Shown here: in pieces, positions 26,701-29,700 of the stretch
Numbering within the stretch: the first letter of the stretch is position 1
Layout of the letters: each line of letters opens with the position of its first letter
From: a virus
Virus genome (UHGV): UHGV-1987335
DNA: 34,290 nt
Strand: one strand, 5' to 3'
Program-made: the position numbers

Positions 26701-29700
26701 GTGGCGTGGTGCGTTGAGAATGACAGCCTGTTTTGCCTCACTGAGTTCCTTTTCCATTTCAGCCAACCTAGCCATAAAGCTATCCTGCTCAACCAGGTAA
26801 CCGCGATATTCCAGCGGTAGTACCGCCAGAATTGCCGGGGTCAGTTCACGCACGTTATTTCGGTATTTTTCAGAATCGAATTTGTTATCGAGGAAGCGGA
26901 ACAGCTTCTGGCGTGCACGGCTGACATCATCAGGGAAATCGATGGTGCCGCCGCCCTGCTCCCGATACTCATTCACAATGAGTGCGGCAACAACATCCTG
27001 ATTATCTGCAGCCGACCAGGCGCGGACGGCATCACGGATTTTTTCGTGGCCTGGAGCTTGTTTTGTTTGAGAACGATTTATCACCGCAGTCGGGCTAAAT
27101 CCGCTAGTCTGTTGGTATGTAAGTGGTTGCATAGTCATTGCCTTATCAGTTAACGCCGCAGTTTAGGCGGCAGAATTACTCGCGTTAAACAATGGTGCGA
27201 GGTCGGGACGAATATCTGCTGGTTTAATCTTTCCACCAGTGGCTGAGACAATTTTCATTACATAGCGGGCATCAATTCCGCCACCGTGTAGCCAACGCCA
27301 AACAGTGGGTTGGGCTACACCGCATAGATCTGCCAGTCGTTTTTGACTACCTGTAATACTGATTGCGAGTTGAATGGTTTGATTTGTCATTATCAATTCC
27401 TATTGGTATTGCAACGAATAAATAATAGCAATTCGTATTAATCATAACAATAGCAAAACGTGTTTTGACCATCAATACGCAAGCGTATAAATTAAAACTT
27501 ATGAAAAAAGAAACTCTTGCTGATCGCTTAAACCTAGCGATGGAACAATCTGGAATGTCTCAAGGCGCTCTTGCAAAGGCGTCTGGCGTAGCTCAACCCA
27601 CAATCTGGAGACTGACAAGCGGCAACGCGCGCGGCTCAACAAAAATTGTTGAAATAGCTAATGCATTGGGTGTTCGAACAGAGTGGCTCTCATCAGGCAT
27701 AGGCCCGATGAGAAATGACGGTCAACAATTAGGGAAGCCTACTGCCAACCATCCCAAATACTTCAAGATTGACGTTCTTGATATAGAAGTGAGTGCCGGG
27801 CCGGGAGTCATCAACCGTGAGTTTGTAGAAGTTCTACGCTCGGTTGAGTACTCGTTTGACGATGCTCGTCACATGTTCGATGGTAGGAAGGCAGAAAATA
27901 TCCGCATCATTAACGTGCGTGGTGACAGCATGTCAGGAACGATCGAACCAGGTGATCTGCTGTTCGTTGATATCACGGTTAAATCTTTCGACGGTGATGG
28001 CATCTATGCGTTTCTGTACGACGACACCGCCCATGTAAAGCGCCTGCAAATGATGAAGGATAAGCTGCTGGTTATCTCTGATAACAAGAGCTACTCACCG
28101 TGGGACCCGATCGAGAAAGACGAGATGAACCGGGTGTTCATCTTCGGTAAGGTTATTGGGAGCATGCCCCAGACGTACAGGAAACATGGATAATCAGTAC
28201 TGTGCTGATGAGTCGTTTAGGGGATAGTAAATTTAATTAGAATTAGACGAGAGCGATTTATGGATTGTGACGCTTTACAGGATATAAAAATCTCTCTTAG
28301 GTATGACGGAAAAGATGCTTTAAATCATGAAATAGATTTGAACTGCCTAGGAGAATCCCTAAAGGGTTTTTCTAAAGTTCTCTCAACAGCAGCTTCTTTC
28401 TCTGTTACACAAAAATATAGTAAATACATTAATTATCAAGAAGTTAAGGTTTACGCACGCGAAGCAAAAGCTAACTGCTTTACTCTTGAAGCAGTTCTTA
28501 ACTTCGCCACTCTGAACCAGTTGTTCTCGGGGATCGCCGCAACTATACTTGGCGCAATACTACAATATATTTTTGCGAGAAATTCTAACAAGAAAGATGA
28601 AATGAAAGCTTTGCAGCAGTCACTTGAAAAGGCCATAGAGGCACTAGGAAACAAGGATGCTGGAACCATTGATAAGTTGATCTCTTTGATTGACCGAATG
28701 GCTGTAGAGCTTCGCCCCTCTGTAAGGCAGGCAGTATCACCTATTGGTAATACTTGCGATCAGATAAGTGTTGCAACAAATGTTGACGGCTGCCTTCTAA
28801 AAGTTAACGAGAGAGATAAAGCTGAAATTGATAGGCTTGATGATGATGAAGTTCTCGGTCTTCGTGAGTATCGTGCTTTTCTTACAGAATTTGATGCACA
28901 AAATATGACAGCTAAAATAATTTTAGATGGTGATGACTCAAAAAAGAGAATCACTGCTGAAATTAGCGATCCAGCTGCAGGAAAGAAGAATAACCCGTAT
29001 ATTAGAGCTCTTAGTGCATATATATCAACCAAAGGTGATCCATCTGCAGTATTCACTATAACCGCAAAGGCTACTGTTAAAAAAGGCCAGATAAACAGGT
29101 TATTTATTGTAGATGCGAAATGATTTCCCCGGCCGTCGTGCCGGGTTTTCTTTTGCCTCCCCTCATCACACACCGTTCAAAAAACCACCACAACCTCCCT
29201 TCAGTTATCGCTATGCGATGCAAGTCACAAAATTAATTCTTTTTGCTATCAAACAGTTAATATCAAAACACATCAATCAATAGCTATAAGTATTGATACC
29301 ACCAATAGCAATGGATATTATTACCATGTCGCAACAACACAACGATACGGCAACCACCTGATTCACCGTTGCGATGACCGCTTAGATCCGCAGCTTGAAT
29401 TTCGGCAGGCTCCGGGGAGTGCGAGGGGTGAAACGGACGCGTGAACGTCGGTGTGACCAGCTGAAATCAACTCAACTCAACACCTCATACCTCAGTCGCT
29501 TCAACGAGGCGGCTTAGTTATGACAACCGGCGGCCATCCACCGCCTGAATACGCGCAGAAGTCTCTATATGTTCAGCAGCCCAGCTTACGGGTAGGAGTT
29601 TTTATGGTTCATCAACATTACGGAACGCAGACCGTTAATCGAGGTGCGGTCATGCCAGGAATGCTGGTCAAACACAAAGATGGTACCTGGACTGCATCAG

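Follow-up and report, generated by a model that had tools for sequence, protein, structure and literature searches.

In phage 434, the recognition helices of repressor and Cro are almost the same, and both proteins bind one set of operators; these are 14 bp long, with the form ACAA-N6-TTGT, and the recognition helix is QQSIEQ. In CP-933P, a prophage of Escherichia coli O157:H7, the proteins PaaR2 and YdaS footprint on four overlapping 18-bp repeats of the right operator (OR) and regulate the left promoter (PL), which has matching operators (PMC8630535). CP-933P is the only footprinted system that we found with the gene architecture described here, and it is the closest experimental precedent. 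We analyzed the immunity region of the virus genome UHGV-1987335 from UHGV (34,290 nucleotides; this whole stretch is “the window,” and all coordinates refer to it). The window is a lambdoid prophage whose orientation is reversed relative to the usual lambda map. Two clusters of an 18-bp sequence, one between cro and cI and one at PL, are very probably the OR and left operator (OL) sites of a lambda-type lysis/lysogeny switch.

The genes cro and cI are divergent and flank a 110-bp control gap. Given this gene order, the two regions singled out in an earlier note on this DNA are where OR and OL/PL are expected. The genes, the predicted promoters (including the right promoter, PR, and the promoter for repressor maintenance, PRM) and the sites are as follows, with scores in bits from the weight matrices described below.

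27163-27390, minus strand: cro, 75 amino acids, a YdaS-family helix-turn-helix (HTH) protein, from the open reading frame (ORF) and Pfam YdaS_toxin PF15943 (E=9.6e-15)
27501-28193, plus strand: cI repressor, 230 amino acids, with HTH_3 (1.8e-6) and Peptidase_S24 (1.3e-18) domains
27422-27450, minus strand: predicted PR, for cro-ydaT-O-P, with -35 TTGTTA (27450-27445), a 17-bp spacer and a TG-extended -10 TATTAT; 9/12 plus TG
27465-27493, plus strand: predicted PRM, for cI, with -35 TTGACC (27465-27470), a 17-bp spacer and -10 TAAATT
29293-29321, plus strand: predicted PL, with -35 TTGATA, a 17-bp spacer and -10 TATTAT (29316-29321)
27394-27411: OR site D (distal), CAATTCCTATTGGTATTG, downstream of the predicted PR start and overlapping the cro ribosome-binding site
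27423-27440: OR site A (OR1-like), TAATAGCAATTCGTATTA, covering the PR -10 and spacer
27448-27465: OR site B (OR2-like), CAATAGCAAAACGTGTTT, over the PR -35 and abutting the PRM -35; 21.8 bits
27473-27490: OR site C (OR3-like), CAATACGCAAGCGTATAA, between the PRM -35 and -10; 18.7 bits
29234-29251: OL4 distal block, TAATTCTTTTTGCTATCA, at the left edge of the immunity-specific cassette; operator status uncertain
29258-29275: OL3 position, TAATATCAAAACACATCA, degenerate in this E. coli lineage, with the left half only; 7.4-10.2 bits
29278-29295: OL2, CAATAGCTATAAGTATTG, overlapping the PL -35, the palindrome pointed out in the earlier note; 18.7 bits with the OR-only matrix
29303-29320: OL1, CAATAGCAATGGATATTA, covering the PL spacer and -10; 18.6 bits with the OR-only matrix

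The earlier note had described at least three copies of CAATAG(C) in each of the two regions, in both orientations. Related motifs are indeed present in both, but the count was overstated. Exact CAATAG occurs only twice per region: at 27400-27405 (minus) and 27448-27453 (plus) in the cro/cI gap, with no further copies there, and at 29278 and 29303 near PL, where both copies are on the plus strand. A putative third OL copy, GCTATCA (29245-29251), is two mismatches from CAATAGC. The palindrome that the note placed over the PL -35, TCAATAgctataagTATTGA, is present at 29277-29296 and overlaps TTGATA (29293-29298). The region that it delimited for OL, 29250-29325, contains OL sites, but the OL element reaches further left, to ~29234. 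The true repeat is an 18-bp pseudo-palindrome, YAATAGCAAT-NN-GTATTR, and CAATAG(C) is its half-site, YAATA(G/C). Allowing up to two mismatches, CAATA-N8-TATTG has 22 matches in 34 kb, five of them within 27388-27490 and two within 29278-29320. A 17-bp version of the palindrome formed no cluster, and thus the unit is 18 bp.

PR and PL share an 18-7-18 design. In each, two 18-mers lie 7 bp apart; the distal one contributes the TTG of the -35 through its outer end, and the proximal one has a TATTA end that overlaps the -10 TATTAT. PL is the best sigma-70-like match in 27100-29600 (10/12) and its hexamers are conserved across genera, while the PR hexamers are conserved in relatives or replaced by TTGCNN. 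The OR sites, in the order D-A-B-C, are spaced by 29, 25, and 25 bp. Site A is the most symmetric and best-scoring (24.1 bits) and overlaps the PR -10 at 27427-27422. Site B, at a 25-bp direct-repeat spacing from site A, is centered at about -44 from the predicted PRM start. Site C, which fits the consensus least well, includes a perfect palindrome, ATACGCAAGCGTAT. Site D has one mismatch to CAATA-N8-TATTG and is the best match of a matrix derived from OL (18.0 bits). One of its halves, GTATTG, is good, and the other, CAATTC, is compromised, as it is the antisense of the cro Shine-Dalgarno sequence (AGGA, 8 nt before the ATG at 27390). An alternative PRM -10, TATAAA, would have a 15-bp spacer; the -10 ends at 27491-27493. 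The predicted PRM start is at the cI ATG (27501) or no more than ~3 nt from it, and no Shine-Dalgarno sequence is present, so the cI mRNA is probably leaderless. Leaderless repressor mRNA was reported for lambda cI and CP-933P paaR2 (PMC8630535).

On the OL side, the outer arms of OL2 match CAATA-N8-TATTG without a mismatch, and OL1 is 82% identical to OR site A, from which it is separated by 1,880 bp. In Enterobacter, Scandinavium, and Raoultella loci (L010-L023), the position equivalent to OL3, 20 bp from OL2, reaches 18-24 bits (for example TAATAGCAATTGCTATTA). This suggests a lineage-specific loss in E. coli (the window and phages 4A7 and Perceval), where the site has decayed to one half.

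The motif discovery proposed in the earlier note was run with a hypothesis-free repeat finder, which tied OR to OL. The finder paired 27424-27440 with 29304-29320 (82% identical) and 27391-27407 with 29301-29317 (88% complementary), and it showed repeats at a 25-bp spacing within each region. A weight matrix built from the four OR sites scored 29278 at 18.7 bits and 29303 at 18.6 bits, the top two of 34,132 positions outside OR; the next position scored 12.2. Reciprocally, the OL-derived matrix ranked 27394 and 27423 first. A score of 18.6 was reached in 3 of 200 whole-window dinucleotide shuffles. If the two regions were alike only incidentally, as AT-rich promoter regions with no common binding protein, such scores should arise by base composition, yet none of 2000 local dinucleotide shuffles of the OL region (32% GC) reached the observed value. 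Incidental likeness could draw on that low GC content, on the overlap of the promoter hexamers TATTAT and TTGNTA with the site ends, and on the hexamer counts given below. Sites C and D, however, are not at equivalent promoter positions, the operators but not the spacers are conserved across many genera, and a predicted heteroimmune phage has promoters at the same places with different repeats. We thus consider this explanation extremely improbable.

Several observations weigh against OR and OL operators bound by one repressor. CAATAG is not enriched in the whole window (13 copies, compared with a shuffle mean of 15.2), and neither is CAATAGC with up to one mismatch (83 compared with 104 expected; four in OR and two in OL). 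This missing enrichment rules out the CAATAG hexamer alone as the signal. The sites used for the matrices were picked by eye, which is mitigated by the leave-one-region-out tests and by the unbiased repeat finder. Sites B and C have one good half-site each, OL3 is degenerate in the window, and the cro Shine-Dalgarno sequence accounts for part of the conservation of site D. The promoters are predictions from consensus matches, and the promoter scan gave seven where 5.3 were expected from shuffles. At the OL4 end, a 24-bp block with the consensus AAAAATAAATTCCTTTAGCTATCA (within 29228-29259) is conserved across genera and is longer than an operator needs, and TATCAAACAGTTA (29247-29259) fits the consensus for integration host factor (IHF), WATCAANNNNTTR.

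One further pair of CAATAGC motifs, at 16394 and 16409, is within the coding N-terminus of a 165-amino-acid ORF (15951-16448, minus), where it corresponds to Ala/Ile/Gly codons, and was set aside as chance. This ORF resembles a signal-arrest-release (SAR) endolysin.

The comparison of operators among relatives with the same repressor, also proposed earlier, revealed that the 18-mers are kept at both OR and OL. Coliphages 4A7, Lambda_4C10, D2, 1W, 3W, PhiR30_1, and Perceval share the cro-OR-cI segment at ~97%. Most of them share the OL region too, and the genes between cI and OL differ. In these coliphages and in Klebsiella ST11-VIM1phi8.2 (75% DNA identity), matrix matches are confined to OR and to the stretch immediately before the early-left operon.

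When species-representative genomes were scanned with the cI N-terminal domain (NTD), 39 loci were found, which include Kluyvera, Citrobacter, Enterobacter, Pluralibacter, Yokenella, Raoultella, Buttiauxella, Proteus, Providencia, Morganella, Serratia, Symbiopectobacterium, and others. Most of the 39 have matches of at least 13 bits at fixed offsets from the cI ATG, and only a handful of matches fall elsewhere. The full four-site layout (approximately -107, -78, -53, and -28) is present in ~20 loci. Site A is at -77/-78/-80 in most loci. Of the 39 loci, 21 have site D at -106/-107 and another has it at -110. Site C is at -27/-28 in 21 Enterobacteriaceae-type loci, with weaker opposite-strand matches at -31 in six more. 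A second cluster lies 0.79-3.25 kb downstream in most full-length loci, and its sites are often 20 and 25 bp apart.

Column conservation separates the sites from their surroundings. Among 23 distinct OR sequences it was 0.92 for site D, 0.96 for A, 0.94 for B, and 0.96 for C, with 0.90 for the PRM -35 and 0.66 and 0.69 for the spacers. Among 18 distinct OL sequences it was 0.92 for OL4, 0.81 for OL3, 0.94 for OL2, and 0.87 for OL1, compared with 0.54-0.74 for spacers and flanks; immediately beside OL4 the flanks fell to 0.54-0.55. In an O157:H7 prophage the OL sites are kept and both flanks differ.

The module is present in 723 of 5,426 complete E. coli genomes (13%), including O157:H7. It also occurs in coliphages 4A7, Perceval, and PhiR30_1, in Salmonella phages BTP1 and ST104, and in prophages of more than 12 Enterobacterales genera. 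In the prophage of E. coli O157:H7 str. F8092B (L005, 6004-6226), cro (YdaS) is annotated as frameshifted, and cI, OR, and OL are intact. Such a frameshift would lock that prophage in the repressed state.

A natural specificity swap is found in phage PhiR47_2. Its P, O, and YdaT proteins are 98% identical to those of the window, and its cI C-terminal domain is 100% identical. It is non-homologous at 27134-27636, which covers cro, OR, and the cI NTD up to helix 4, and its OL/PL cassette differs over exactly 95 bp (29234-29328; 41/95 identical, compared with 77/100 and 97/100 in the flanks). No matrix match in PhiR47_2 exceeds 10.8 bits. Instead, its OR and its OL both have ACAACC...GGTTGT-type repeats, and its cI and Cro have the recognition helices SQAAIQKI and SQQAVYKW, respectively. 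By this swap, YdaT, O, P, and the cI C-terminal domain are ruled out as readers of the motif, which is assigned to the cI NTD and/or Cro. The co-swap of operators with cro and the cI NTD also supports the suggestion of the earlier note that these operators would define immunity specificity. Phages 4A7, PhiR30_1, and Perceval are predicted to be homoimmune with the window and PhiR47_2 heteroimmune.

The same comparison bears on the idea that the repeats are bound by the CII-like YdaT, or by a host protein such as IHF, and not by cI or Cro. Besides the IHF-like match at OL, this idea has in its favor that YdaT is a DNA-binding tetramer on an inverted repeat in CP-933P (PMC9986795). As a binder of the 18-mers, however, YdaT was rejected, since PhiR47_2 encodes a 98%-identical YdaT and has none of these sites. 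Conversely, loci L002, L014, and L023-L027 and phage BTP1 have the sites without YdaT. The sequence of the known YdaT site, TTGATT-N6-AATCAA, is not that of the 18-mers, and IHF could explain at most the 29234-29259 block. We regard binding by YdaT or a host protein as very improbable.

A search for TTGATT-N6-AATCAA itself gave a one-mismatch match at 27379-27396, which spans the cro start codon, and a perfect match at 20561-20578, in the gap that follows a predicted AraC-like cargo gene (20611-21408, minus; from a reading of the translation). With up to two mismatches there are seven matches in the window where 2.3 are expected. Neither of these two palindromes could be linked to the OR/OL finding or to YdaT function.

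The cI protein has a 434-repressor-like NTD (E=1.5e-5) and a LexA/S24-type C-terminal domain that matches UmuD' (E=1e-4), in which Ala99-Gly100, GDSM, and a downstream Lys motif can be read from the translation. Cro is similar to the Xylella prophage Cro 3bd1 (E=1.2e-3). The recognition helix is AQPTIWRL in cI (residues 31-38) and AQPTVWRW in Cro (residues 26-33). The cI NTD and Cro are 40% identical over 48 amino acids (E=6e-9), with helix 3 reading GVAQPTIWRL and GVAQPTVWRW, respectively. Loci that keep the operators all have AQPTIWRL unchanged, down to ~61% NTD identity. Loci L031-L036 (Symbiopectobacterium, Serratia) are without a YdaS-type cro and keep both AQPTIWRL and YAATAGC sites. Loci L025 and L028 have another Cro helix (KQPSVSRW) with the same cI helix and the same half-sites. 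From these loci we infer that the motif tracks cI.

This pattern argues against a division of labor in which only one regulator (e.g., Cro/YdaS) binds the 18-mers, while cI reads other, overlapping repeats and CAATAG is not the immunity determinant. CP-933P provides some reason to consider it, as two overlapping repeat types were found there that could not be assigned to PaaR2 or YdaS (PMC8630535). In addition, the site centers are asymmetric and conserved (GCAATGNG), which leaves room for two reading modes. But the near identity of the cI and Cro helices in the window also stands against it, and we judge it unlikely. Promoter overlap, the reciprocal matrices, conservation, and the swap all agree with what the earlier note had proposed, that is, OR and OL sites for one repressor, and as far as computation from sequence goes this proposal is supported.

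If the sites are OR and OL operators, the switch can be pictured as follows. Dimers of cI would read the 18-mer with the helix AQPTIWRL, and the YdaS-type Cro, with a nearly identical helix, would be its competitor at these sites. If lambda and CP-933P are a guide, cI may fill site A and then, cooperatively, site B, which would turn off PR and with it cro-ydaT-O-P; we infer cooperative filling because site B has a single consensus half-site. At site B, cI would probably stimulate PRM. Site C may serve for cI autorepression and as the Cro target through which cI is shut off. OL1 and OL2 would block PL and so turn off the early-left operon (kil-gam-bet-exo-xis-int). Induction of the prophage would follow from RecA-stimulated cleavage at Ala99-Gly100. 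The OR-OL distance of 1.88 kb makes lambda-like looping possible.

The single mildly unusual feature is a conserved fourth block on each side. OL4 combines one operator-type half-site, GCTATCA, with an AATTC half that resembles OR site D. Scored with a matrix from OR sites A-C only, it reaches 13.1 bits, the third-highest score in the window once the training sites are set aside, a value attained by 1.3% of local shuffles. The two distal elements (27394-27411 and 29228-29251) share the variant AATTCC half-site; one is over the cro ribosome-binding site and the other is ~80-95 bp upstream of the PL start. A four-plus-four operator layout in this immunity group, compared with the three-plus-three of lambda, is thus conceivable, but we hold it only tentatively and think it rather doubtful. 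Were cI to bind both distal elements, an altered looping stoichiometry or an added post-initiation block on cro would be possible. Instead of, or besides, a fourth operator, the 29234 block could be a host-factor site (e.g., for IHF) upstream of PL.

The genes around the switch are as follows.

24879-25580, minus strand: P (ORF and domain annotation)
25577-26596, minus strand: O (ORF and domain annotation)
26593-27138, minus strand: YdaT-family protein in the cII position (PF06254, 1.5e-29)
28260-29123, plus strand: cargo gene, 287 amino acids, DUF7946/DUF7947, in the position of lambda rexAB (domain annotation)
29128-29145, plus strand: intrinsic terminator that closes the cI operon just before OL (terminator prediction)
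30188-30973, plus strand: bet; the order after PL is kil, bet, exo, int

The slot between the cI stop codon and OL (28260-29123, and its equivalents in L001, L002, L004, L005, and L045) has a different cargo gene in each homoimmune relative examined. In the window, the DUF7946/DUF7947 gene has a weak PADLOC match to PDC-S42 (E=3e-4). Elsewhere the slot holds a hypothetical protein and ASCH in 4A7, GevT/GevA in PhiR47_2, SIR2 in the O157:H7 prophage, a ParA-like protein in the Klebsiella phage, and st313-td in BTP1. With cI on one side and the OL cassette on the other, it looks like a hotspot for defense or cargo genes.

Between the predicted PL start and kil (~29604-29810), no N-like ORF was seen in window positions 29329-29603. 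The PL leader (~190-270 nt) is ~95% common to heteroimmune coliphages and partly to phi80 and HK225. A search of this leader for structured RNA gave no Rfam match, and its folding stability is not unusual (z = -0.87). Between the cro stop and the ydaT start there is a GC hairpin, GCCGC-N7-GCGGC (27144-27162), without a T-run, at a position where a tR1-like signal or an element of the region of the promoter for repressor establishment (PRE) might be expected. An ORF for an EmrE/QacE-like small multidrug transporter (24243-24602, minus) adjoins a ren-like gene, and the same is seen in 4A7 and Perceval. Set against EmrE, the C-terminal third of this ORF appears to be out of frame, and it may be a frameshifted pseudogene.

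Compared with lambda, the locus has the same divergent cI and cro around a ~110-bp control region, with tandem operators ~24-25 bp apart over PR and PRM, and the same second operator set over PL beyond the cI operon. The distance between the two sets is 1.9 kb here and 2.4 kb in lambda. Both also have a repressor with an HTH and a LexA-like cleavage domain, cargo in the rexAB slot and, probably in the case of the window, a leaderless cI mRNA. The differences are in the operator, which is the 18-bp YAATAGCAAT-NN-GTATTR instead of a 17-bp site, in the four conserved blocks per side instead of three, and in the 434-like cI NTD, the YdaS-family Cro, and YdaT in the cII position. Phage 434 provides the closest solved relative of the cI NTD (E=1.5e-5), a likeness of fold and family only. 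The operators are not of the 434 type; the repeats here are 18 bp with YAATA arms and an 8-bp center, and the helix is QPTIWR.

CP-933P of E. coli O157:H7 shares with the window the YdaS-type Cro and YdaT in the cII position (PMC8630535, PMC9986795). Its four OR repeats of 18 bp are roughly evenly spaced. The four conserved 18-mers here are spaced by 29/25/25 bp, and the fourth overlaps the cro Shine-Dalgarno sequence. The operator consensus is GTTTAGTAA in CP-933P and YAATAGC here; the two are unrelated, and the immunity is a different one. Moreover, the CP-933P repressor heads a toxin-antitoxin operon, whereas the window has a classical S24-type cI, and the match to the YdaT operator is at another place in the window (27379-27396, one mismatch).

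Taken together, this is an ordinary lambdoid switch with an operator type that is apparently uncharacterized. We found no description of the operator sequences of this immunity type in the searchable literature, including that on BTP1 and ST104, and a search with the exact operator strings returned one unrelated yeast tRNA paper only. The finding leaves the understanding of how such switches work unchanged. It does mean that, with the consensus and the mapped OR/OL sites, immunity groups become predictable from sequence. The sites also mark the boundaries of the defense-gene slot between cI and OL and are ready-made fragments for footprinting.

The closest match in specificity is to the Salmonella phages BTP1 and ST104. 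The cI NTD of BTP1 is 90% identical and has the same helix, AQPTIWRL, while its Cro helix is KQPTVWRW. It has three OR and two OL sites (14-23 bits), with near-identical OR sequences (TAATAGCAATTAGTATTA, CAATAGCAAAACGTGTTT, and TAATACTCAAGCGTATAA). ST104 and BTP1 differ from the window in other respects, as their host is Salmonella and not E. coli and they are P22-like podoviruses with a small conventional cII, an N gene, and bstA (st313-td) cargo. The ST104 repressor was listed as a predicted specificity class of its own (Villafane et al., PMC2629481 Table 1), and the specificity predicted for the window equals this ST104 repressor class.

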